Translations under genes and position numbers: made by a program
Notes under the pieces: generated by a model
The model's input: only the letters and a program-made list of their open reading frames with translations
What the model was told of the DNA's origin: nothing
Databases searched by the model: none
In this document: piece by piece, positions 6,520 to 25,528 of the stretch
How positions within the stretch are numbered: the stretch's first letter is position 1
Layout of the letters: each line of letters starts with the position of its first letter
NCBI GenBank assembly: GCA_016840855.1
Contig: JAEORO010000036.1
Coordinates: 1-25,528, forward strand
Reading direction: 5' to 3'
Length of the DNA: 25,528 nucleotides
DNA from: Candidatus Thorarchaeota archaeon
Lineage (GTDB): Archaea; Asgardarchaeota; Thorarchaeia; Thorarchaeales; Thorarchaeaceae

Positions 6520-6912
6520 TCATGGCGTCACAGTGGAAGTAGTTTCATACTTGCTTGGGCATGATGTCAGAATCTCTGTGGCGTGAATAAGAGCTGCTGA
6601 TTGCAATGTACCAATTGCGACGATATCCTGACCATCTATCAAGTTGGGTGTTTCCCCAAGAATCAATACAGTTATTGTATGATTTTCCCCTTCCATTACC
6701 AGTGTTACATTTTCAACTGTCGTGCTGAGTGATCCTGAAAGGTAAGTGCCTTTCACCTGTATTGTTCGACCCATGTATGAGTTTGGGTCTTCGACGACTT
6801 GATCTACACTTAGATACGGATCAACAAAGAGATTCAACATAGCAAATGACACGAATCCTATAGTCGCAACCAAGATGATTGCTACAGCCGCCATTCGTGT
6901 TCTCTTGTTCAC
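6520..6912 (-). CDS. ccmE: Cytochrome c maturation heme chaperone CcmE, CxxxY (System I*) type
   Basis: N-terminal TM, an OB-fold-like body and C-terminal ATEILTSCPSKY. It is the last gene of the ccm cluster. Confidence 0.93.
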   Translation of the reverse strand: MNKRTRMAAVAIILVATIGFVSFAMLNLFVDPYLSVDQVVEDPNSYMGRTIQVKGTYLSGSLSTTVENVTLVMEGENHTITVLILGETPNLIDGQDIVAIGTLQSAALIHATEILTSCPSKYETTSTVTP

Positions 6913-6914
6913 TT

Positions 6915-7055
6915 TTAGTTATCTCCTTCGACTTGCGATTCCACAATCTTCAGTTGTTTTTCAATTCCCATCATTCTTAATAGGAGATACAATAGGAATG
7001 CGAAGATTCCACCCCAAAAGATTACGGCTACTACAAATAGTTCAACTTGCTGCAT
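6915..7055 (-). CDS. ccmD: CcmD-like small membrane protein (46 aa)
   Basis: Below the ORF-track cutoff. Hand translation gives MQQVELFVVAVIFWGGIFAFLLYLLLRMMGIEKQLKIVESQVEGDN*, a single TM plus a charged helical tail. GAGGAG lies 8 nt upstream, and the ORF fills the ccmC-ccmE gap with 4-nt and 2-nt spacings. Confidence 0.85.
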   Translation of the reverse strand: MQQVELFVVAVIFWGGIFAFLLYLLLRMMGIEKQLKIVESQVEGDN

Positions 7056-7059
7056 TTCA

Positions 7060-7734
7060 TTAACTCCTCGACATTCTTATTCTCATCAATTTTTCGTGCG
7101 CTGCATCAACCCTGTATGTCAAGTCTATCAAAATCAAAGCTATCATGGTAACGGCAATCATGGATACCATCAATGTCATAGCATGTTCGATTTCCATCTG
7201 AAGCCCTGTTGGCTCAATGACAATTGGGTGTAATGTTTCCCAGATTCGAATTGAAAGATAGCTCAATAATACCATCGGGAATGCTATGATTCCAAAGATG
7301 GAACCAAATTGAGCTTTGGACTCTCGGTCGCTGACAGAAGCTCGATATGCAAGAATACAGGCATATGCTATCCAAAGGATGAGAGTGGTTGTTTCACGTG
7401 GATCCCAATTCCATGGAGTTCCCCAAGCTGCATCCGCCCACATCATTCCTGTGAGGAGTGTAATTGTCGTGAACAATAGTCCTAGTTTGAGTGCTGCGGC
7501 TCCTAAAATGTCATATTTCAGATCTCCCCGCAACAAATACATAGCACCGCACACAAGTGTTCCACCAAAAGCTCCATAGGCAACAAGTGCTGGGGCAACA
7601 TGTTGAAAGAAAATCCGAATATATTCTAGGAGTTCTGCCTCTGGTGGTGCAAAGATCCATGTCATATAGACATATAGAAAGGATACTGCAGCAGTGATTC
7701 CAAGAAACATTATTCGGTTTCTGCTCAAGTTCAT
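7060..7734 (-). CDS. ccmC: Heme exporter / heme-handling protein CcmC
   Basis: WWD domain MWADAAWGTPWNWDPRET, flanking His ligands (FFQHVAPA, TLHP) and six TM segments. Confidence 0.95.
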   Translation of the reverse strand: MNLSRNRIMFLGITAAVSFLYVYMTWIFAPPEAELLEYIRIFFQHVAPALVAYGAFGGTLVCGAMYLLRGDLKYDILGAAALKLGLLFTTITLLTGMMWADAAWGTPWNWDPRETTTLILWIAYACILAYRASVSDRESKAQFGSIFGIIAFPMVLLSYLSIRIWETLHPIVIEPTGLQMEIEHAMTLMVSMIAVTMIALILIDLTYRVDAAHEKLMRIRMSRS

Positions 7735-7757
7735 TCAACTCGAATTGCTGGCCAATT

Positions 7758-7770
7758 TTGCAATTTGCAA
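7758..7770. promoter_or_regulatory. Candidate operator TTRCA-N3-TGYAA (exact)
   Basis: TTGCA-ATT-TGCAA in the 63-nt ccmB-ccmC gap, about 23 nt upstream of the ccmC start. Confidence 0.5.
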
Positions 7771-7797
7771 TATGAAGGTTGCGTTAATGACGAAGAT

Positions 7798-8478
7798 TCA
7801 TGGTGAAAGTGCAAAATGGAAGACTGATGCTGAAAGTGTCAACATAGCTATCAGATGGGCAAGAAGTATTTCAAAAATTAACACAACTGGAATTAGACCT
7901 GGTCCTAAAACAATAATTTTTGTTATCTCTATTAGCAGCATCAAACCAGATGTTGCTGTTGGAAAATATACAAGGGGAAACACAGTAGCTTTTGACTCTG
8001 ATGGCATTGTGAGAGCTGATGCCATCGAACCAACAGCTGCTAGATCTAGTGTTCCAACTAGAAATGTCGCAATAGCTAGGGGAAAGTCATTGATGATTGA
8101 GAAACCAAATAGAACGGATATAATTGGGACCAAGAAGATCTCTACTAATCCCATTAATAGAAATCCATAGATCACTTTTCCCAGATAAACAGACCATGCT
8201 GGTATTGGTGCTGTAGCTAAACCTCGCAATGTGCCAGTTTCAGACTCGGAGAGAAAAATTGGAGCAAATCCAAACATACCTGTAAAGAATATTATAACCC
8301 ACAGCAGAGCACTACCAATTTCCTCTGAAACTGAACCTCCCGTCACTACTGCAAAGGAAAATGCAAGTACTGCGATAAGGGCAAAAAGGAACATCGAGAA
8401 CGCTTCAAACTTTTTACGAAATTGTGTAATGATGTCTTTTTTCGCAATTGCCAATGCAGCGCTCAAGCCAGATGTCAT
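7798..8478 (-). CDS. ccmB: Heme exporter permease CcmB
   Basis: AIAKKD near the N-terminus, ALLW, FxxExExGTLxGL, and YLGK. Six TMs, positioned between ccmA and ccmC. Confidence 0.92.
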   Translation of the reverse strand: MTSGLSAALAIAKKDIITQFRKKFEAFSMFLFALIAVLAFSFAVVTGGSVSEEIGSALLWVIIFFTGMFGFAPIFLSESETGTLRGLATAPIPAWSVYLGKVIYGFLLMGLVEIFLVPIISVLFGFSIINDFPLAIATFLVGTLDLAAVGSMASALTMPSESKATVFPLVYFPTATSGLMLLIEITKIIVLGPGLIPVVLIFEILLAHLIAMLTLSASVFHFALSP

Positions 8479-8487
8479 TCACTCACC

Positions 8488-9177
8488 TCAGAGGGTCTGA
8501 TCAAATTCAGAGATTGGACCCTGGCCTACCACCACACCCTTTCTAAGTGTCACAAATTCATCACATAATGCTGCTCCAAGAGCTAGATTGTGTGTTGTTA
8601 CAATTGTTGTTCGCAAATTCCTAAACTCGTTTAGATAATTCCAAAAGTCTTCAGTTGTATCTTTATCAAGTCCACTAAAAGGCTCATCCAAAAGTAGCAA
8701 TTCTGGATTGTGTATCAAACTTCGGACTATATCGAGTCTCTTTTTGAGCCCTGTTGAGAGGTTCTTAACGGGTTCTTGAAGCCATGACTGAATACCAAAC
8801 CTTGGTGCTAAACCATCTAGCTGAGATTTGAAGAAATCAGATGACAGTCCGAATAATTTGGAGTAGAACCAAAGGTTCTCAAATCCAGTGAGTTCCTCAT
8901 AAAGAAGCGGCTTGTCACCAACCAAACCTATACGTTTCTTCACTTCCTCAGATTCTTCTTGAGGGTCAAAACCCATTACAGAAATCTTTCCTCCATGGGG
9001 CCGAAGCAGGGTCGATATTACGCGCATAAGTGTGGTCTTTCCTGCACCATTCGAGCCAAAAAGCCCTTGAATGCCATTCTTCGAAAAACTAAGCGATACT
9101 TCCCTTAGCGCTACTCTATAACCATACCGTCTTGTGAGTTCAAAAGTTTCAATGGCTTTTGACAATGGGAAGTTCAC
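8488..9177 (-). CDS. ccmA: Heme exporter ABC ATPase CcmA
   Basis: Walker A GSNGAGKTT, signature LSTG, Walker B LLLLDEP and H-loop TTHN. Adjacent to ccmB. Confidence 0.9.
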   Translation of the reverse strand: MNFPLSKAIETFELTRRYGYRVALREVSLSFSKNGIQGLFGSNGAGKTTLMRVISTLLRPHGGKISVMGFDPQEESEEVKKRIGLVGDKPLLYEELTGFENLWFYSKLFGLSSDFFKSQLDGLAPRFGIQSWLQEPVKNLSTGLKKRLDIVRSLIHNPELLLLDEPFSGLDKDTTEDFWNYLNEFRNLRTTIVTTHNLALGAALCDEFVTLRKGVVVGQGPISEFDQTL

Positions 9178-11986: not shown

Positions 11987-12397
11987 CTAAGCAATGTACT
12001 GAATGTATCCCATAGCAAAGACTATGGTCCAACATATCGCAGCTACTAATCCTGGAATATGTGTCCTTATGCCTGAGATTCCAGTTAGGAATGCACCAAT
12101 TCCAGAAATGTAACCTAACGTTCCCAAGCCAATATGAATCAAATGAAATAAGTCCGCTCCACCAGCACCGAGAAGTGTGCCAGTAAGAGGTAAAATAGTC
12201 ACAATATTGATTGTTGTTAGTAATAGTGATAGACCTGCACATAGACCATGGGCAAATGTGTACTTTTCCTTTGAAACATAGTATAATGCTGTCCCAATAT
12301 AGAGAAGTATTAGGGCTGGAAGTCCCAAGATCACAGTCATGTGTAAATTGTTAAACTGTAAAACTTGGAATTGATTGGTTGATAGATAGGATGTCAT
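11987..12397 (-). CDS. Four-TM membrane protein with conserved His, putative cytochrome b-like (DUF420/b561-like)
   Basis: Four hydrophobic helices with His in NLHMT, FAHGL and FHLIH. It aligns by eye with the C-terminal domain of 23831-25042. AGGAGG RBS. Confidence 0.65.
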   Translation of the reverse strand: MTSYLSTNQFQVLQFNNLHMTVILGLPALILLYIGTALYYVSKEKYTFAHGLCAGLSLLLTTINIVTILPLTGTLLGAGGADLFHLIHIGLGTLGYISGIGAFLTGISGIRTHIPGLVAAICWTIVFAMGYIQYIA

Positions 12398-12605: not shown

Positions 12606-14327
12606 TTAATGGAAGATTTTTCTAAAGAACCTCAGGAATGGTGTTCCTATTGAAAGCACAACCGTAATTGGTACCAGATTCGCAAATTCAGACACCACAA
12701 ATCCTGCAAATAGTCCTACTATGAACCAGACCAAAAAACTAGCCATATCGTTCACGAATATCCAAGGGACATATGCTTGAATTATCGATGGTACCAAAAT
12801 ACCTGCTAACCAAACCACAATTGGTGCCACTAATCCAGCTATGAGCATAATTAGTATGTTCAGTCGAACACTAAGAACCAATGGTCCTGGGAAGACTTTG
12901 TGTGAATTGAGAAATCCATTCTTGTCTGTTTTCCGTTTGAGATTAGACATTTTTGTGTAGTTCTCTTTTCCATAGAAACTTCTAGAGTGAGCAGCATTCC
13001 ACATGCCTATTGAATAGGCTCTACCACCATGTTTCAAACCAAGATTGATTACATCCAATGAGCGATACCAACCCATGAGGAAAGAAATTCTTCGTCGCTC
13101 ATCATCAGGGAACCATGTTAGGACAGCTACTTCACCTTTGTCCGTAATAGCTCCTTCAAGTGCGAAATCTTCCGATTTGAAGTGTTTGTTCATATGATTG
13201 ATATATTCATCCAAGTTTTCTAGCGGCACATAGACCTCTGAAGGAGCAAGACTGGGCCCAAGTCGTTTGATTCGCATTGGGTAGAAACGTTCACTCCATT
13301 CATGTTCCGCAACCTCATCGGATTCAAGAGATCCACTGTATCTACTCACGATATGTTTGAGCTTCTCAATTTCTGTAGCAATCTCATCTTCAGTTCCTTC
13401 GAATGCACATGATATGATGAATTCTCCTGTTGTTGGTGGTGCTTGATTCACTTCTTTCAACATCTTGTAGAAATTATCAGTGATGAAGTGCAAATAGAAT
13501 GGTCTTGTGGCTTCAAGGATATCCTGAAGTGCTCCAACCATTAGACTTTGGCTTCGAAAAGATGATGTGGTGGGTTTTATGTCTCTCAATGGTATTATTT
13601 TCAAGACAACTTTAGTAATAATCCCAAGAGCGCCATTGCTATCTACAAATAGTTGCGTTGAGTCAGGATTGTAAGTTATTCTATCACTAATTTCTCCGTA
13701 GAAGGAATCTCCGCCAATGAAATCATTTCTCTCTTTGTCAACCACGAATTTTTCTTCAGAAGTTTCCGTTGTTCGAATGATTTCACCATCTGGTAGAACA
13801 ACTTCCAGATCTACAACTTGTTCGGCAATTCCTCCATATTTAGTGCTACCAATGCCACTACCACCAGCAGCCACCCAGCCACCAACGGTGCTTGATGGAG
13901 CACTTGATGGATAGGCTGCAACAGTCAATCCCTCATCTTCAAGTTCTTCTATCAACTTCCCCCAAATTATACCCGAACCTACTTCTACAGTCATATTTTC
14001 TCTGTCAATGTGATGAATCTGATTTAATCTGGTCATCTCAAGAACAAGTCCGCCTCTTGTGGGCAGAGCACCTCCGTAACCACTCGTGCCATGTCCTCTA
14101 GGAACTACGGGGATGTGTTCCTGCTTGCAATATGTTAGAAGATTGGATACAACCTCAGTAGTTGATGGTTGCGCCACAGCTTCCGCATTCGGATTCAAAA
14201 CATCATTGACAATTCCGGGTAAAGCAGCAATATCATGAGAATATAGTTTGGTCATATATTCTTCTGAAGAGAAATAGTCTTCACCTGCTATATCTGCCAA
14301 TTTTTGCATATGCTTCTTCGCAATCAT
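12606..14327 (-). CDS. FAD-binding oxidoreductase of VAO/PCMH fold with a C-terminal membrane anchor, subtype B
   Basis: PRGHGTSGYGG, YPSSAPSSTVGGW and RFYPMRIKRLGPSL, plus a hydrophobic C-terminal extension of about 90 aa. Paralog of 16835-18556. Confidence 0.9.
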   Translation of the reverse strand: MIAKKHMQKLADIAGEDYFSSEEYMTKLYSHDIAALPGIVNDVLNPNAEAVAQPSTTEVVSNLLTYCKQEHIPVVPRGHGTSGYGGALPTRGGLVLEMTRLNQIHHIDRENMTVEVGSGIIWGKLIEELEDEGLTVAAYPSSAPSSTVGGWVAAGGSGIGSTKYGGIAEQVVDLEVVLPDGEIIRTTETSEEKFVVDKERNDFIGGDSFYGEISDRITYNPDSTQLFVDSNGALGIITKVVLKIIPLRDIKPTTSSFRSQSLMVGALQDILEATRPFYLHFITDNFYKMLKEVNQAPPTTGEFIISCAFEGTEDEIATEIEKLKHIVSRYSGSLESDEVAEHEWSERFYPMRIKRLGPSLAPSEVYVPLENLDEYINHMNKHFKSEDFALEGAITDKGEVAVLTWFPDDERRRISFLMGWYRSLDVINLGLKHGGRAYSIGMWNAAHSRSFYGKENYTKMSNLKRKTDKNGFLNSHKVFPGPLVLSVRLNILIMLIAGLVAPIVVWLAGILVPSIIQAYVPWIFVNDMASFLVWFIVGLFAGFVVSEFANLVPITVVLSIGTPFLRFFRKIFH

Positions 14328-14339
14328 TTACTGCACCAC

Positions 14340-15518
14340 CTAGAGATCCAATGCTTCAGCAACTATTTGTGACAAATCTTTGAATTGTATTTTTGACTGG
14401 CGATTTTCTATACCATCATTCAATGACATTGTACAAGATGGACATTCACTCGAAAGTATCGTGGCTCCTGTCTTCTCTGCTTCTTCAATACGTCTTGCTG
14501 ATACCCTCACAGATGCAACAGGATATGTGCCCTTCAAAAGCCCGCCGCCTCCACAGCAACGTGCTTTGTTACGGTTATGTTTCATCTCCTTCAGCTTAAG
14601 CCCTGGTATAGCTTTCAAGACCTCACGTGCTGGATTGTAGATGTTCTGATGTCTACCTAATTCACAAGGATCGTGCCATACTACTTCATGAGGGTATTCT
14701 TTCCTGAATTTGATCTTCCCATCCCTGAGTAATCTCAGGACAAACTCAGAGAATGGCAGGAATTCAAGACCCTCTACAACTTCCTTTCCGAGAAGGTGTG
14801 GATATTCCTCTGCAAAAGCCCGGTGACATCCTGGGCAGTTGAAGACAACTGTTTTGACACCAAGAGTCTTGAGAGCCTTAATATTATGCATGGCTAATTC
14901 TTTGCCCTTATCAAAGCCGCCTGCAACAAAGTATGGATTTCCACAACAGAATTCTTCGTCTCCAAGAACAGTGAAATCAATTCCTGCAGCGTTCATGACT
15001 TTGATTGTGTTTTCACCCATATGTGCTAAGGTTCCCTTGAAAGAGATATTACATCCAGCAAAATAAGCAACCTCTGCTTGAATACCAATCCTATCTTCAA
15101 CTAAATCATCAACCATATCTGTCCAGAGGGTTCTGTCAGCCTGATCCATCTCCATGATGTTCTGAGTTTGCTGAAGCGAGTCGTCAATGTAATTCACTAT
15201 CTCTGGCCATTGTTCGAGCTTACCAATTTCCTGTCGAGTAAGTTGCCAAAACCTAAGAAGAGGAATATTCGTTTGGCAAATCTCTTGGCAAGCTCCACAC
15301 AATGTGCAATAGAAGATTCTACTTGCAAAGTCACTTGGTATTGGCTTGTTTTCCTTTATGAGTGACTTGAGCTGGTATAATTTTCCTCTAGGTGACTGAG
15401 AGTCCCAAAGTGTATCTAGATATGCTGGGCAGACAAATGTGCAGAATCCACATCTAGCGCACACTGTTGGCTCAATATCGAGCCCTTCAAGTTTGAGGGA
15501 TTCGAATAGATTTGTCAT
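14340..15518 (-). CDS. GlcF/HdrD-like Fe-S protein (2x[4Fe-4S] plus two CCG domains)
   Basis: CARCGFCTFVCP, SPRGK and CTLCGACQEIC; GC..CCG..CPGC and HDPC..CCGGGG..CPSC. Confidence 0.93.
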   Translation of the reverse strand: MTNLFESLKLEGLDIEPTVCARCGFCTFVCPAYLDTLWDSQSPRGKLYQLKSLIKENKPIPSDFASRIFYCTLCGACQEICQTNIPLLRFWQLTRQEIGKLEQWPEIVNYIDDSLQQTQNIMEMDQADRTLWTDMVDDLVEDRIGIQAEVAYFAGCNISFKGTLAHMGENTIKVMNAAGIDFTVLGDEEFCCGNPYFVAGGFDKGKELAMHNIKALKTLGVKTVVFNCPGCHRAFAEEYPHLLGKEVVEGLEFLPFSEFVLRLLRDGKIKFRKEYPHEVVWHDPCELGRHQNIYNPAREVLKAIPGLKLKEMKHNRNKARCCGGGGLLKGTYPVASVRVSARRIEEAEKTGATILSSECPSCTMSLNDGIENRQSKIQFKDLSQIVAEALDL

Positions 15519-15533: not shown

Positions 15534-16037
15534 TCATGGCCAAGGTATTCCAATCCAATCCAAGATTGGCGATAGGATGGATGTTTCATAAACAGCTATT
15601 CCACCTAAAGCACCCATTATCATCATCAAAACGCCACCAAAGATTACGAGTATGGCATAAGGGAAATAACTACTCGCTTTAACCCACACACCATCTCCAA
15701 GTTTCGCACGTACTATCATCAGATAGAGATAGATTTCAACTGAAACCACAGACCAAAGAATTTTGAAACGCATAATTGGCATCTGAACAAGAGTACTGAC
15801 TGGATACTCAGGCTCCATGAAACCTGTGACCATTCCTGCAATTAACCCCAGAAATCCAATGATACTGCCAATATAGATGAAGCCATCAAATTGATGGAAT
15901 AGACGTGCCAATCTTGTTCCAGGTGTATTGATGTTATCTCTAAAAAGAACCCGTAGAATAAGATTTACTAAAGCCACTGCAGCTGCTGCTGTCAAAATTC
16001 CTGTGTGGAAGTGCACAAATACGGGATGTATTGCCAT
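15534..16037 (-). CDS. Four-TM membrane protein, DUF2231-like (putative heme b binding)
   Basis: N-terminal HPVFVHF, C-terminal GALGGIAVY and four TMs. AGGTGA RBS. Confidence 0.65.
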   Translation of the reverse strand: MAIHPVFVHFHTGILTAAAAVALVNLILRVLFRDNINTPGTRLARLFHQFDGFIYIGSIIGFLGLIAGMVTGFMEPEYPVSTLVQMPIMRFKILWSVVSVEIYLYLMIVRAKLGDGVWVKASSYFPYAILVIFGGVLMMIMGALGGIAVYETSILSPILDWIGIPWP

Positions 16038-16055: not shown

Positions 16056-16637
16056 CTATCTCCTCTTGATTGCCAAGTAACCAAGAACAACTAGAATGAG
16101 TCCTGTGGCGATAGGAACCCAAATTATCATCATGCTCCAAATCTCGTATAAATCGACTGTTGTTGGTGGTGGCGTTGTTGTTCCAGATTCGCCAGTTACA
16201 ACCACTGTCACATCAAATGATTGTGCAAGATCTCCACCTGCTGCTGTCCAAATTCGGATAGTAAATGTACCGTTCGTAAGTGGAGTGAAAGTGACGTCTA
16301 CTGATATCTCTCCATCAGCTGCATTAGTATCGTTCGTCGAATCATCTTGAACAAGAGGTTCAGAGATTGTGAAGTAATCATTATCTTCCCATCCACTTTT
16401 GATAGCGACATATTCTGCGCCATTCCCTGCATCAATCTGGAGAACAAAAGGCACTCCTGTCTCTGCATCTACTGATGAATTTGTAGTGAGTGTGAGTGTC
16501 GTAAATGTTTCATGACAACCAGCACTCCCACATTCACTTGAGAAATTTGGACTTGCGACAACTGAGCTTGCCGCAGCAACTAACAAAAGAAGAAAGCTCA
16601 TAATCACTAAGAGCTTAGTTGTATGGTTACGTTTCAT
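16056..16637 (-). CDS. Exported, C-terminally anchored beta-rich protein with a CX4CH motif (putative atypical monoheme cytochrome c)
   Basis: Signal peptide, then SPNFSSECGSAGCH, an acidic Thr-rich domain, a TTTPPPTT linker, and a C-terminal TM ending KRR. The motif cysteines are the only Cys in the protein. Confidence 0.68.
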   Translation of the reverse strand: MKRNHTTKLLVIMSFLLLLVAAASSVVASPNFSSECGSAGCHETFTTLTLTTNSSVDAETGVPFVLQIDAGNGAEYVAIKSGWEDNDYFTISEPLVQDDSTNDTNAADGEISVDVTFTPLTNGTFTIRIWTAAGGDLAQSFDVTVVVTGESGTTTPPPTTVDLYEIWSMMIIWVPIATGLILVVLGYLAIKRR

Positions 16638-19852: not shown

Positions 19853-21196
19853 CTACTTCAAGTCTTCAATCATTTCACCAGCACATGCAATACCTGACTT
19901 CGAAGATGCTTCCATGGATGCATAGTACATGCCACAGTTTGCATATTCCCCTGCTACATAAAGCCCTTCGACTCCAGTACGGTTAGTTGTAAGACGCTGG
20001 TCCATTATTCCAGGTGGTTGTTTGAGGATTGATTTCCAAATCTTCCAGCTCTTTTTCCAGGTGACTTTATCTTTAACACCAGGAATAAGAATCTCAAGTT
20101 CGTCAAGAATTGCTTCTGTTGCCTCCTCATCACTCATCTTAAGGAGCTCCTTGTCGATACCTGTGACTGTTAGAAGAGACTCTCCAATGGGTGCCAGTAC
20201 TCCTGACACTCTCTTCGCTTCAGCAACAATATTGATCTTTCTTTCTGGTACAAATGCACCGACATTGAAATCTAAGACTCGTGATTTCAAACCAAAGTAT
20301 CCAACGGTGCTAGGTGTATACTCAAACTTGGATGTTTTTTCGGTGAATTCTTTTGGCAACTCACTCATTCTAACGAAGTTTGGCAGGAGATCGATTGGAG
20401 TAGACAGGACAACAGCATCCGTATCCATATGTTTGCTCTCTCCATCTTGTTCATAGTCAACCCCAACCACTTTTCCATCTTCAATGATTACCTGCTTTAC
20501 AGCACAGTTGACCTGTGGTTCAACTCCAAAGTTACGGGCTTGAAGCATGAGTGTATATGCGACACTGCCTAATCCACCTCTCTCAGGATACATAGCACTG
20601 AATCCATCTTCATATGCGAATCTAAGGTGTTCGGAATAGAGGTATTGTCCAGCAGACACCTCATCTGGATTCATGAATGTAACAGTCTTGATTAGTGGCT
20701 CATAGAACTCATTTTGGATGGATTCTGCGATTTTCTTATCCTCTGCATACTCTGTAAAGGTCATCTTATCTAGTTCTTTGAATTCTTCTTTGGATCTCTT
20801 GATGTTCTCTTGAACAAGCAATCCAAGCTTAGCTCTGTCAGCTGCAGGCAATAGACCAAACTTTGCCAACTCAATAGCTGATTTTCGGATAATATGCCTT
20901 TCACCATCTTTGAGCCAGACTGCACCTTCCCCGACAGTGGTCATTTTAACTCCACTCCTTTCTAGAATCGGAATTAGTGATTTGAATCCGCCAACGAAGA
21001 AGTGTAATCCTTGGTCAAAGACATAGCCTGATTCCGTGTATGACCTGGCACGACCACCAACAGTCTTTTCTTTCTCAAGAATTGTGCATCGGGCTTTGAG
21101 ACCCTTTAATTCAAGTGCACAGCTGAATCCAGCTATACCACCGCCAACAATGACAACACGTGTCCCTTTTTCTTTACTCATAAGTGATATCTCCAC
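19853..21196 (-). CDS. FAD-dependent oxidoreductase of the amine oxidase / phytoene desaturase / HpnE superfamily
   Basis: Rossmann motif VVIVGGGIAG, then E....VGGRARS, DQGLHFF and C-terminal GLYVAGEY...ASMEASSKSG. The start may be ATG 21181. Confidence 0.82.
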   Translation of the reverse strand: MEISLMSKEKGTRVVIVGGGIAGFSCALELKGLKARCTILEKEKTVGGRARSYTESGYVFDQGLHFFVGGFKSLIPILERSGVKMTTVGEGAVWLKDGERHIIRKSAIELAKFGLLPAADRAKLGLLVQENIKRSKEEFKELDKMTFTEYAEDKKIAESIQNEFYEPLIKTVTFMNPDEVSAGQYLYSEHLRFAYEDGFSAMYPERGGLGSVAYTLMLQARNFGVEPQVNCAVKQVIIEDGKVVGVDYEQDGESKHMDTDAVVLSTPIDLLPNFVRMSELPKEFTEKTSKFEYTPSTVGYFGLKSRVLDFNVGAFVPERKINIVAEAKRVSGVLAPIGESLLTVTGIDKELLKMSDEEATEAILDELEILIPGVKDKVTWKKSWKIWKSILKQPPGIMDQRLTTNRTGVEGLYVAGEYANCGMYYASMEASSKSGIACAGEMIEDLK

Positions 21197-23830: not shown

Positions 23831-25042
23831 TCACGGAACAAAGACTTCTCCAAGATAGACTCCCATTATTCCAAGTATTGTCCACAAAACTACTGCAGGA
23901 AGACCAAGATTGCATGTTTTCCACCCACCAAGATGTGTCAAAAGCGCGAGGGAACCAAGAATCATGCTAATTATTCCAAGCCAAACATGCCATGCGTGCA
24001 TGAATAACAGCATGTTACTAATGTCTATCAGGAATGCAGGATTCATGACACTCCAGGTGCTGGCAGGCTCCATGAATAGGCTCAATACATTAATCGTCGT
24101 GAGAATGTACGCCAAACCAAGCATGATGCCATGGATTCTGGTGAACCTTTCTTCATCATAATACTCAAGAGCTGTTCCCAGATAAGCTAGAACAAGTGCT
24201 GGTGCTCCAAGTAACCAACCATAGTGAAATTGTGGTAGCTCTATAGGTTCGACGGGAATGTTTCCAACGATATATGATAATGTGGGGCTGATGCTCTCGG
24301 TCCCAGAGGCGTCCATTGCCACAATCCGCCAGAGAACTTCTTGATTATTCGCTAACCCTGGGATTGTTCCAGAATACACACCGACTTCAGTTGTTTCAGT
24401 CATACTGACATTTGTCCAAGTTGCACCATTATTGGTGCTATACTGAAGTCTGACATAGGTTATTGTTTCGGTGGAAGTGACAGAAACTGTGACTGTGAAC
24501 TCTTCATTTGCTCGTGGGACTTCTGGAGTAGTTGAAGGAGACCCAATTGATGGGCCAGGACCTGCTTGAACTACATCGACGGTTATTGATGAACTAATCG
24601 AATAGGGAGTATGCTGAGCAGCAAAAATTGTCAGTGTATAGGTTCCAGCAAATGCAGGAGCTGTGATGTTATAGAATGTATGAATTGCGTTATCGGCCAT
24701 GTCAAGATCTAGTGTGGGATCATTATCTGTAACTAGTCCTGGGTCATCTACATTCATTGGCACTTCTATTGTGAACTCATCATTATTGGCGACTTGACTG
24801 GGAATTCTTAGTACGAATACATCCTGTGAGAGACCAGCCGCAGTGACTTCAACCTGAAAGGTTTCTGATGGGGCCACCTCAATTGATGATATTGTACTTA
24901 TCGAAAGGCCTGTGGAATCGTTATGGCAGGTAGTTGAACAATTACTTTCGGCACTACTATTCGCGAGAACATTTCCAGCTGCAACCATGATGAGGATTAC
25001 TGAAGCAAAAACAACTAGTGCGACTTTGAACTTGTGCCTCAT
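23831..25042 (-). CDS. Exported CX3CH / beta-rich domains fused to a four-TM His-containing membrane domain (putative cytochrome c-cytochrome b fusion)
   Basis: Signal peptide, NSSAESNCSTTCH, two beta-rich domains (the second with LQYSTNNGATW), then four TMs with FHYG, RIHG and MHAWH. GGTGAT RBS. Confidence 0.7.
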   Translation of the reverse strand: MRHKFKVALVVFASVILIMVAAGNVLANSSAESNCSTTCHNDSTGLSISTISSIEVAPSETFQVEVTAAGLSQDVFVLRIPSQVANNDEFTIEVPMNVDDPGLVTDNDPTLDLDMADNAIHTFYNITAPAFAGTYTLTIFAAQHTPYSISSSITVDVVQAGPGPSIGSPSTTPEVPRANEEFTVTVSVTSTETITYVRLQYSTNNGATWTNVSMTETTEVGVYSGTIPGLANNQEVLWRIVAMDASGTESISPTLSYIVGNIPVEPIELPQFHYGWLLGAPALVLAYLGTALEYYDEERFTRIHGIMLGLAYILTTINVLSLFMEPASTWSVMNPAFLIDISNMLLFMHAWHVWLGIISMILGSLALLTHLGGWKTCNLGLPAVVLWTILGIMGVYLGEVFVP

Positions 25043-25307: not shown

Positions 25308-25403
25308 AAGCTAACTATAGTTGTGGTAAGAGGGGACATATTTTTATTGTCCTGCTTGTGAAAATTACAAACCCTAATCTACGGACAATGGTGAAAAAAA
25401 CCA

Positions 25404-25528
25404 ATGGTGTACTACACTGAAGAGACCTCTAGGGTCAATAAGCGCTTAGTAGCAGGGTACTACCTGTTCCTTTGCTTGATTGGTTTCGCCATTCTCCTAG
25501 GACCTACGGGATCTGGAATACCTATCAC
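25404..25528 (+). CDS. N-terminus of a divergently transcribed exported or membrane protein (runs off the window edge)
   Basis: Hand translation gives MVYYTEETSRVNKRLVAGYYLFLCLIGFAILLGPTGSGIPI, open to the edge. GGTGA at 25390-25394, and a basic then hydrophobic signal-like pattern. Confidence 0.6.
   Translation, partial: MVYYTEETSRVNKRLVAGYYLFLCLIGFAILLGPTGSGIPI

Follow-up and report, generated by a model that had tools for sequence, protein, structure and literature searches.

A candidate monohaem c-type cytochrome family with a variable haem-attachment loop in Thorarchaeota

The usual view of Thorarchaeota, and of most other Asgard archaea, is that they live by fermentation or acetogenesis and have no cytochromes c. 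A contig of a Candidatus Thorarchaeota archaeon (JAEORO010000036.1, GenBank assembly GCA_016840855.1; positions 1 to 25,528, the whole of which was analysed and is called the window) encodes a small membrane-anchored protein with a CX4CH motif, and the locus raises two questions: whether this protein is a c-type cytochrome and, if it is, what would complete the coordination of its haem iron. We put a probability of roughly 0.7 on the reading that it is a Sec-exported c-type cytochrome with a single haem, placed within an electron-carrying module. The motif and its conservation, the synteny of the gene and its co-occurrence with the cytochrome c maturation (Ccm) machinery are direct observations, and the biochemistry is what we infer from them. 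New here are the variation in the spacer between the two motif cysteines, the constant spacing of the motif from the mature N-terminus and the absent haem pathway; a literature search, which did not cover subscription journals, found nothing on Thorarchaeota c-type cytochromes of this kind.

The gene, its attachment motif and its relatives

The gene and the parts of its product are as follows.

16056..16637, minus strand: gene for the 193-amino-acid (aa) membrane-anchored candidate monohaem cytochrome c, called as an open reading frame (ORF); first of a four-gene operon
16554..16637, minus strand: predicted signal peptide (residues 1-28), expected to be cut after V-V-A (sequence reading, invariance of Ala28)
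16533..16553, minus strand: seven-residue mature N-terminal segment, SPNFSSE, ahead of the first motif cysteine, Cys1 (alignment counts)
16512..16532, minus strand: CX4CH haem-attachment motif, CGSAGCH, residues 36-42, with Cys36, Cys41 and His42 (sequence and alignment)
16188..16502, minus strand: immunoglobulin (Ig)-like beta-sandwich ectodomain, residues 46-150 (AlphaFold2 model, fold searches, conservation)
16152..16187, minus strand: Thr/Pro-rich stalk, residues 151-162 (sequence reading; the predicted local distance difference test score, pLDDT, is lower there)
16059..16151, minus strand: C-terminal transmembrane helix carrying the invariant Trp167, Pro175 and a patch of Met, with K-R-R as its tail (AlphaFold2 helix at 163-192)

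Both the ORF and the CX4CH motif at 16512-16532 had been picked out in an earlier reading of the sequence (the original prediction), and both were confirmed at those positions on the minus strand. The protein begins with a hydrophobic core and has V-V-A at positions -3 to -1, a start that is read as a signal peptide. Ala28 is invariant among 53 aligned orthologues, and Ala stands at the aligned position in 158 of 189 family sequences; we predict cleavage after Ala28 and a mature chain beginning SPNF at Ser29. A regular expression for the cleavage site chose alternatives such as V-A-S before Pro and was dropped in favour of counts taken from the alignment, because signal peptidase disfavours Pro at +1. 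An N-terminal signal with V-x-A before the motif, together with a C-terminal helix that ends in the K-R-R tail, would place the motif on the outer side of the membrane.

In the predicted ectodomain (residues 29-162) there are two Cys and two Tyr, a single His and a single Lys, and Met is absent, which agrees with the earlier description of an external domain lacking any His, Met or Cys beyond the motif. Where the membrane helix begins, on its outer side, stand Met169 and Met170; a Met is found within residues 168-171 in all 53 orthologues, and the family-wide Met patch comprises residues 169-171. An AlphaFold2 model based on the 53-row alignment (mean pLDDT 76.9) has its beta strands within residues 49-148 and a single helix at 163-192, and so bears out a beta-rich external domain followed by one transmembrane helix. 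An N-x-S/T sequon occupies residues 53-55 (16473-16481, minus strand), 11 residues past the haem His, in 51 of the 53 orthologues, and Asn53 and Thr55 are common across the wider family too; Asn53 probably carries a conserved N-glycan beside the haem site.

A homologue search of 5.8 billion proteins returned 92 homologues with 41-100% identity, all of them unnamed or labelled 'hypothetical', and the taxa that were named are Thorarchaeota, Sifarchaeia or Promethearchaeota. A C-Xn-C-H motif stands at the matching position in 90 of the 92, while the remaining two, of 136 and 150 aa, lack part of their N-terminus; this argues against a chance match. Cys36, Cys41 and His42 are invariant among the 53 aligned orthologues. 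The original prediction had named a non-conserved His as grounds for giving up the haem, and His42 proved to be conserved throughout those 53.

The two cysteines are joined by a loop of variable length. Among 89 full-length orthologues (a set that leaves out three rows shorter than 170 aa) the Cys-Cys spacer is 4 residues in 52, 5 in 19 and 2, giving the canonical CXXCH, in 18. On a tree built from the post-motif sequence alone the spacer has changed at least 12 times, with at least 5 of these changes forced by well-supported branches. Because the orthologues switch among spacers of 2, 4 and 5 residues, CX4CH is, on these alignments, a lineage variant of CXXCH. CX4CH, though rare, is also an accepted haem-binding motif, present in cytochromes that are known or structurally solved, according to the available parts of two papers (PMC6469936, PMC11492766).

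More distant relatives extend this variation. A profile search of 1.84 billion representatives gave 134 proteins at E <= 0.001, and 133 were analysed beyond those already collected. Taking the first motif within the first 110 residues, the spacer is 2 in 57/133, 4 in 23/133, 1 in 6/133, 3 in 2/133, 5 in 2/133 and 6 in 1/133, and 42/133 have no two-Cys motif; these 42 are in part single-Cys proteins, often with H-x-x-C-H, and in part matches through Ig-like repeats only. Some distant members (P0144-P0220) have CX1CH, for example C-Y-C-H, and others in that group have a single Cys, often in H-x-x-C-H, with the His at the Cys1 position and seven residues from the predicted N-terminus.

Existing models do not describe the family. 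Pfam and NCBIfam scans of the 193-aa protein found no family (in Pfam nothing at E <= 0.01, and five weak unrelated rows at E <= 10), and in all of 20 diverse relatives (20/20) the N-terminal domain went without a Pfam model. The best ESM Atlas score was 0.85, below the 0.9 level, and the clusters reached, which are no more than a lead, were archaeal ones with the automatic names hypothetical, Big_7 or Reelin domain. A profile search with a diverse alignment recovered mainly known homologues and no named taxon outside Thorarchaeota-type labels, and a cluster look-up of 10 distant members yielded organism names for 2, both Thorarchaeota. The sequences very probably represent an unmodelled archaeal family of monohaem c-type cytochromes with a variant, evolutionarily flexible attachment loop.

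Maturation machinery, operon and membrane partner

A block of maturation genes, ccmABCE, spans 6520..9177 (minus strand) of the window.

8488-9177, minus strand: ccmA (Pfam ABC_tran)
7798-8478, minus strand: ccmB (Pfam CcmB)
7060-7734, minus strand: ccmC (Pfam Cytochrom_C_asm)
6520-6912, minus strand: ccmE (Pfam CcmE; Cys-type, CPSKY at residues 118-122)

A read-through frame joining ccmB to ccmC was considered and rejected, as stop codons separate the two genes. Another contig of the same genome (C228, 1-177; L019) opens with the final 50 residues of CcmF, and since that contig starts with the CcmF tail and the window ends within a multihaem cytochrome gene, the rest of the island is taken to lie in an assembly gap. 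After the CcmF tail, C228 continues with a geranylgeranyl-reductase-like gene and a 351-aa gene, the same as in a relative (G140). Neither ccmD nor ccmH was seen among the ORFs of the window, where no dedicated search for them was made. In Methanosarcina CcmABCEF is sufficient, and Cys-type CcmE (CxxxY) is found in archaea, both as given in the available part of PMC9084895.

Presence of the cytochrome family tracks presence of this machinery. We searched 77 genomes of the taxonomic family with the cytochrome family profile and with Pfam PF01578 (CcmC/CcmF): both were present in 38/77 and both absent in 37/77, PF01578 occurred without the cytochrome family in 2/77, and the cytochrome family occurred without PF01578 in 0/77. 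The two patterns therefore match in 75/77 genomes, a count that is descriptive and carries no statistical test. In the protein's own genus, the 7 genomes without the cytochrome family are also without PF01578. Moreover, the only signal-peptide proteins in its own genome that have CXnCH close behind the signal are three family members (spacers 4, 3 and 2) and the product of the truncated multihaem gene. Binding of haem c, as the original prediction had proposed, is thus supported by the conserved Cys/Cys/His, by orthologues with the canonical CXXCH, by ccmABCE in the window and by co-occurrence with Ccm, and a c-type cytochrome matured by System I is well supported by these comparisons.

The operon continues downstream of the cytochrome gene with three further genes, separated by gaps of 18, 15 and 12 base pairs; the spacer upstream of the operon is 197 base pairs long.

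15534..16037, minus strand: DUF2231-like four-helix membrane protein, 167 aa, predicted docking partner of the cytochrome (Pfam DUF2231 at E 1.6e-4, below cut-off)
14340..15518, minus strand: CCG-domain/4Fe-4S protein of HdrD, GlcF or TmcB type, 392 aa, third operon gene (Pfam CCG 9.6e-34, Fer4_8)
12606..14327, minus strand: GlcD-like flavin adenine dinucleotide (FAD) dehydrogenase with C-terminal membrane helices, 573 aa, fourth operon gene (Pfam FAD_binding_4 2.9e-40)

The DUF2231-like gene follows directly after the cytochrome gene in 12 of 12 genomes examined. For the 392-aa protein, NCBIfam gave matches to LdhH, TfrB, TmcB (2.5e-31) and HmcF (8.5e-19), all below their curated cut-offs.

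A model of the cytochrome with the DUF2231-like protein, made from alignments of both proteins and with two haems riding along, scored 0.75 (runs 0.75, 0.72 and 0.77) against 0.18 for the best of 3 controls. Contact agreement among the runs was at least 93%, and the pLDDT of the partner was at least 84. Of 157 solved complexes 116 attain a mark of 0.75, as do 2 of 215 mismatched pairs; these counts are only a rough guide because custom alignments and a riding haem were used. The modelled interface joins cytochrome residues 163-192 to partner residues 84-127 and 166-167 (helices 3 and 4 and the C-terminus), so that, given this interface, the invariant Trp167, the Met patch and Pro175 would form a docking surface. 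The cytochrome is predicted to dock on the DUF2231-like protein through its membrane helix. In the partner's own alignment His4, His9, His11 and His48 are invariant, and we read the positive-inside rule as turning His4, His9 and His11 outward, an arrangement that fits the way the modelled interface is oriented. Foldseek, run with the partner model, matched nothing at E <= 0.001; its highest, weak rows were STEAP2 (E 0.21), STEAP1, the NOX5 membrane domain and CcsBA. VIA-align returned generic four-helix bundles only (Z up to 12.5), and we base no conclusion on either search. A sequence search of the PDB with the profiles of both proteins gave nothing below E 0.6.

The following mechanism is proposed. 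The protein would be exported by Sec, probably N-glycosylated, and freed of its signal peptide. A streamlined archaeal System I, composed of the CcmABCE of the window and a CcmF encoded in the adjoining assembly gap, would then link one haem covalently to the two motif cysteines, Cys36 and Cys41, and His42 would serve as proximal ligand. The haem would sit at the N-terminal tip of the Ig-like sandwich, which the Thr/Pro stalk and the single helix would tether to the outer face of the membrane, with that helix docked, as modelled, against helices 3 and 4 of its His-rich neighbour, the DUF2231-like protein. As occupant of the sixth position this mechanism favours first the N-terminal alpha-amine, next water or no ligand at all, perhaps with Asn86 close by, and last a different protein; the odds given below rank the first two the other way round. 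Together the four gene products may carry electrons across the membrane between the cytoplasmic flavoprotein and the cell surface, along a path of flavoprotein, Fe-S protein, membrane protein and surface haem; as for the direction of flow, we prefer export, to the multihaem cytochrome of the island or to external acceptors. If this is true, a flavin/Fe-S module wired to a surface haem would open to these eukaryote relatives a way of exchanging electrons externally or with other species.

Several observations weigh against this reading. Residues 21-45, the motif included, have a pLDDT below 50 in the AlphaFold2 model and are unplaced. In the complex model small molecules are not scored, which leaves it silent on haem; the DUF2231 match of the partner reaches 22.2 bits where the cut-off is 26.4, and a haem b in the partner is a guess, because the fold searches gave generic four-helix bundles only. 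CX5CH, the form in 19 orthologues, is absent from the haem motifs given in the available part of PMC11492766. The two-by-two table overstates independence, because genomes of one family are related, and none of 21 RNA runs was listed as holding the stretch. Furthermore, HemB (PF00490) and HemC (PF01379) were not found in the protein's own genome, which is 92% complete, and they occur together in only 1 of 86 family genomes, on a single contig of an assembly about 80% complete with 5% contamination; the same search matched them in 11 of 14 control genomes. With HemB and HemC missing, a cytochrome would depend on haem import, for which no search for importers was made.

Despite the scarcity of HemB and HemC, PF01578 is present in 45 of the 86 family genomes. 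Asgardarchaeota include a substantial share of predicted haem auxotrophs, as stated in the available part of a preprint (10.1101/2021.01.11.426183), and the haem is probably scavenged; the lineage appears to be a haem auxotroph that nevertheless makes cytochromes c. Sediment archaea that keep a Ccm system without HemB and HemC would have to scavenge haem, a point of relevance to efforts to cultivate them.

Rival readings and the sixth ligand

Candidate ligands were sought in a 189-sequence alignment to the orthologue profile. Its members were chosen for 'CH' or 'CK' in the first 110 residues, and the conservation of Cys41 and His42 in this set is uninformative because it is fixed by that selection. 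The best-conserved positions outside that selection, with their counts among the 189 family sequences, are Asn86 (185/189), Phe89 (182/189), Pro119 (181/189), Gly123 (178/189), Asp103 (172/189), Phe64 (171/189), Asp98 (170/189) and Cys36 (169/189). In a 46-row alignment of diverse two-Cys members, Cys36, Cys41, His42, Asn86 and Phe89 are the sole invariant columns. No further conserved column of His, Met, Lys, Tyr or Cys is present in either the 53 orthologues or the 189 family sequences.

The distance of the motif from the mature N-terminus, in contrast to the Cys-Cys spacer, is nearly constant. Between the aligned -1 Ala and Cys1 lie seven residues in 156 of the 169 family sequences with two cysteines; the same holds for 84 of the 89 orthologues, among which the length of this segment changed at least 3 times, against at least 12 for the spacer. 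The three paralogues of the genome itself all have seven residues before Cys1, with spacers of 4, 3 and 2, and in single-Cys relatives read by eye the residue at the Cys1 position is also seven residues in. Segments of 11-12 residues occur in six family sequences, five of them among the 89 orthologues. Pro is found at +2 in 124 of 188 sequences and Gln at +1 in none. The constant seven-residue segment is circumstantial evidence: it would be expected if the position of a free N-terminus matters, and it is equally compatible with a purely structural role.

It is improbable that the protein is not a cytochrome at all, whether its cysteines form a disulfide or bind another metal or the protein acts as a surface receptor that captures external haem for an auxotrophic cell. 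Haem capture would be useful to a lineage without HemB and HemC, beta-sandwich haem receptors such as NEAT domains and HmuY exist, and some distant relatives have a single Cys, often in H-x-x-C-H. However, a disulfide has no need of an invariant His next to the second Cys and would rarely tolerate loops of 1-6 residues between fixed ends, and neither a disulfide nor another metal site explains that His, the tolerance of loop length or the link to Ccm. The family tracks a covalent attachment machine in 75 of 77 genomes, and its gene stands within an operon of redox enzymes, both of which speak against a mere haem receptor.

If haem c is granted, a sixth position that is empty or held by water or by Asn86 would be the leading possibility, at somewhat less than even odds; coordination by the N-terminal amine would be possible though doubtful, a ligand from another chain would be improbable, and the remainder falls to other arrangements. 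Taken without that condition, a five-coordinate or weakly ligated c-type haem (water or the Asn86 amide), suited to small-ligand binding or a catalytic or sensor role, is a tentative reading. Asn86 and Phe89 are conserved about as often as the motif, no His, Met, Lys, Tyr or Cys is, and precedents exist in the Asn-ligated haem c of the Rhodobacter SHP protein and in c'-beta and P460, which are five-coordinate beta-sheet cytochromes. Against this, an operon with an Fe-S protein, a flavoprotein and a membrane partner fits electron transfer, for which haems are usually six-coordinate and low-spin, and there is no P460 or c'-beta Pfam match at E <= 10; in those families, moreover, the motif lies near the C-terminus. 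An alternative in which the alpha-amine of the first mature residue serves as sixth ligand, an arrangement shared with cytochrome f but evolved independently of it, is rather doubtful. It would account for the lack of any conserved side-chain ligand, for a seven-residue spacing kept in 156/169 sequences and across three paralogues with differing spacers, for the frequent Pro at +2 and for the absence at +1 of Gln, which can cyclise and block the amine. Yet six sequences have 11-12 residues, the cleavage site is itself predicted, the constant length may reflect packing of a segment that is unplaced in the structure model, and precedents are few: cytochrome f, whose mature chain starts Tyr-Pro and uses its N-terminal amine as the sixth ligand, and CooA, with Pro2 as a haem ligand. 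A ligand from the membrane, either His4, His9 or His11 of the partner or the protein's own Met at the start of its membrane helix, is a decidedly unlikely source. The three partner histidines are invariant and outward-facing by the positive-inside rule, and Met is present within residues 168-171 in 53/53 orthologues, but the confident interface involves the membrane helix only and already explains the Trp/Met/Pro patch, and in Ig-like domains the N-terminus usually emerges at the pole away from the one joined to the stalk. Contacts placed with confidence do not include the motif region, so that the complex model neither supports nor counters ligation in trans. Such a ligand is also not general for the family, because the haem domain of a 776-aa paralogue is far from the membrane.

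The original prediction had drawn attention to a cytochrome f-like layout while stating that homology was not shown. The layout is real: as in cytochrome f (PetA), a haem motif near the mature N-terminus is followed by a beta-rich ectodomain and one C-terminal helix, and a side-chain sixth ligand is lacking. Homology found no support. In Pfam no row for the cytochrome f families Apocytochr_F_N and Apocytochr_F_C appears at E <= 10, and there is no sequence relative in the PDB. The Foldseek check that had been proposed (E around 5e-5) and VIA-align (best Z 9.3, root-mean-square deviation 3.7 A over 95 residues) returned only generic Ig-like domains, the rows displayed being the S-layer protein SbsC, complement MG domains and pilus chaperones, with cytochrome f not among them. 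The thorarchaeal fold is a single generic Ig-like sandwich; seven residues precede Cys1, whereas cytochrome f has about 20; the spacer is 4 here and varies among orthologues; and the partners are a DUF2231-like protein and CCG/FAD enzymes instead of cytochrome b6 and the Rieske protein. Convergence is a possible source of the likeness. It is unlikely, though worth stating, that the whole picture holds, that is, a monohaem family on an Ig fold with an amine ligand seven residues before Cys1, a loop free to take 1-6 residues and a scavenged haem, which would be a second invention of the cytochrome f solution.

Known relatives in function and the surrounding island

The arrangement of an outer cytochrome c, an integral membrane protein and a cytoplasmic CCG Fe-S protein is also that of TmcABCD, HmcABCDEF, DsrMKJOP and the HdrDE of Methanosarcina. 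The thorarchaeal module differs from these complexes in several of its parts: on the outside it has, in place of a cytochrome c3, a self-anchored monohaem protein of Ig-like fold, with a single motif and no cytochrome c3 Pfam match; its membrane part is DUF2231-like and not a dihaem b subunit of the NarI, HdrE or DsrM type; and its input is a membrane-anchored GlcD-like flavoprotein. In our reading the module may be analogous in logic to Tmc, Hmc, Dsr and HdrDE and built from different membrane and haem parts.

Cytochrome c3 has a CX4CH haem site. In hydrazine dehydrogenase the site of haem 3 likewise has four residues separating its thioether cysteines, and the proximal His comes after them, according to the available part of PMC6469936; the sites in hydrazine dehydrogenase and cytochrome c3 are fixed ones in multihaem proteins, whereas the single site of the thorarchaeal family alternates among CXXCH, CX4CH and CX5CH. 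The maturation genes resemble System I of Methanosarcina acetivorans, as described in the available part of PMC9084895, in ccmABCE, in a Cys-type CcmE (CPSKY) and in a ccmF whose tail lies on an adjoining contig here. They differ in their clients, an unmodelled family with spacers of 2-5 (1-6 in distant relatives), and in a host seemingly unable to make haem. The thorarchaeal proteins offer a natural series, one site with thioether loops of 2, 4 and 5 residues (1-6 in distant relatives) and without a side-chain sixth ligand; with loops so varied and no such ligand, the family tests both the tolerance of archaeal Ccm and how the coordination of a haem is completed.

Further features of the island bear on the same family or on its possible electron acceptor.

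23831..25042, minus strand: 403-aa paralogue whose N-terminal haem domain carries CX3CH and is followed by a further beta domain and, fused to it, a membrane domain (orthologue profile, 4.2e-14)
11987..12397, minus strand: 136-aa His-bearing membrane protein (BLASTP E 4e-18 to the membrane domain of the 403-aa paralogue)
25404..25526, plus strand: first 41 codons of a gene for a membrane-anchored multihaem cytochrome c, cut by the contig end (open-ended ORF)

The block from the 403-aa paralogue to ccmE is conserved in G140 and in G239, a genome of another genus. The truncated gene was read by comparison with G140, where a 463-aa multihaem protein has 7 CXXCH motifs and a Pfam C554/C552 match: in tblastn, 25383-25526 is 85% identical to that protein over 48 residues. 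The ORF at 11987-12397 falls in no Pfam or NCBIfam family, and the His-bearing membrane domain of the 403-aa paralogue is 35% identical to it and unrelated to the DUF2231-like protein.

The third paralogue of the genome, of 776 aa (contig C207; L018, 47-10129), has CGECH followed by a long beta-rich, repeat-like run and a membrane anchor. Its gene lies divergently beside one for a GlcD-like FAD protein fused to a NuoB-like domain, after which come NuoA/J/C/D/H-like genes, and from its sequences this gene group looks like a complex-I-like module with a flavoprotein head. Within the window, four paralogous pairs of GlcD-like FAD and CCG/Fe-S proteins fill the island between 9279 and 23820 (minus strand), two of the FAD proteins having C-terminal membrane helices, and an amine-oxidase-like flavoprotein is encoded there as well, at 19853-21196.

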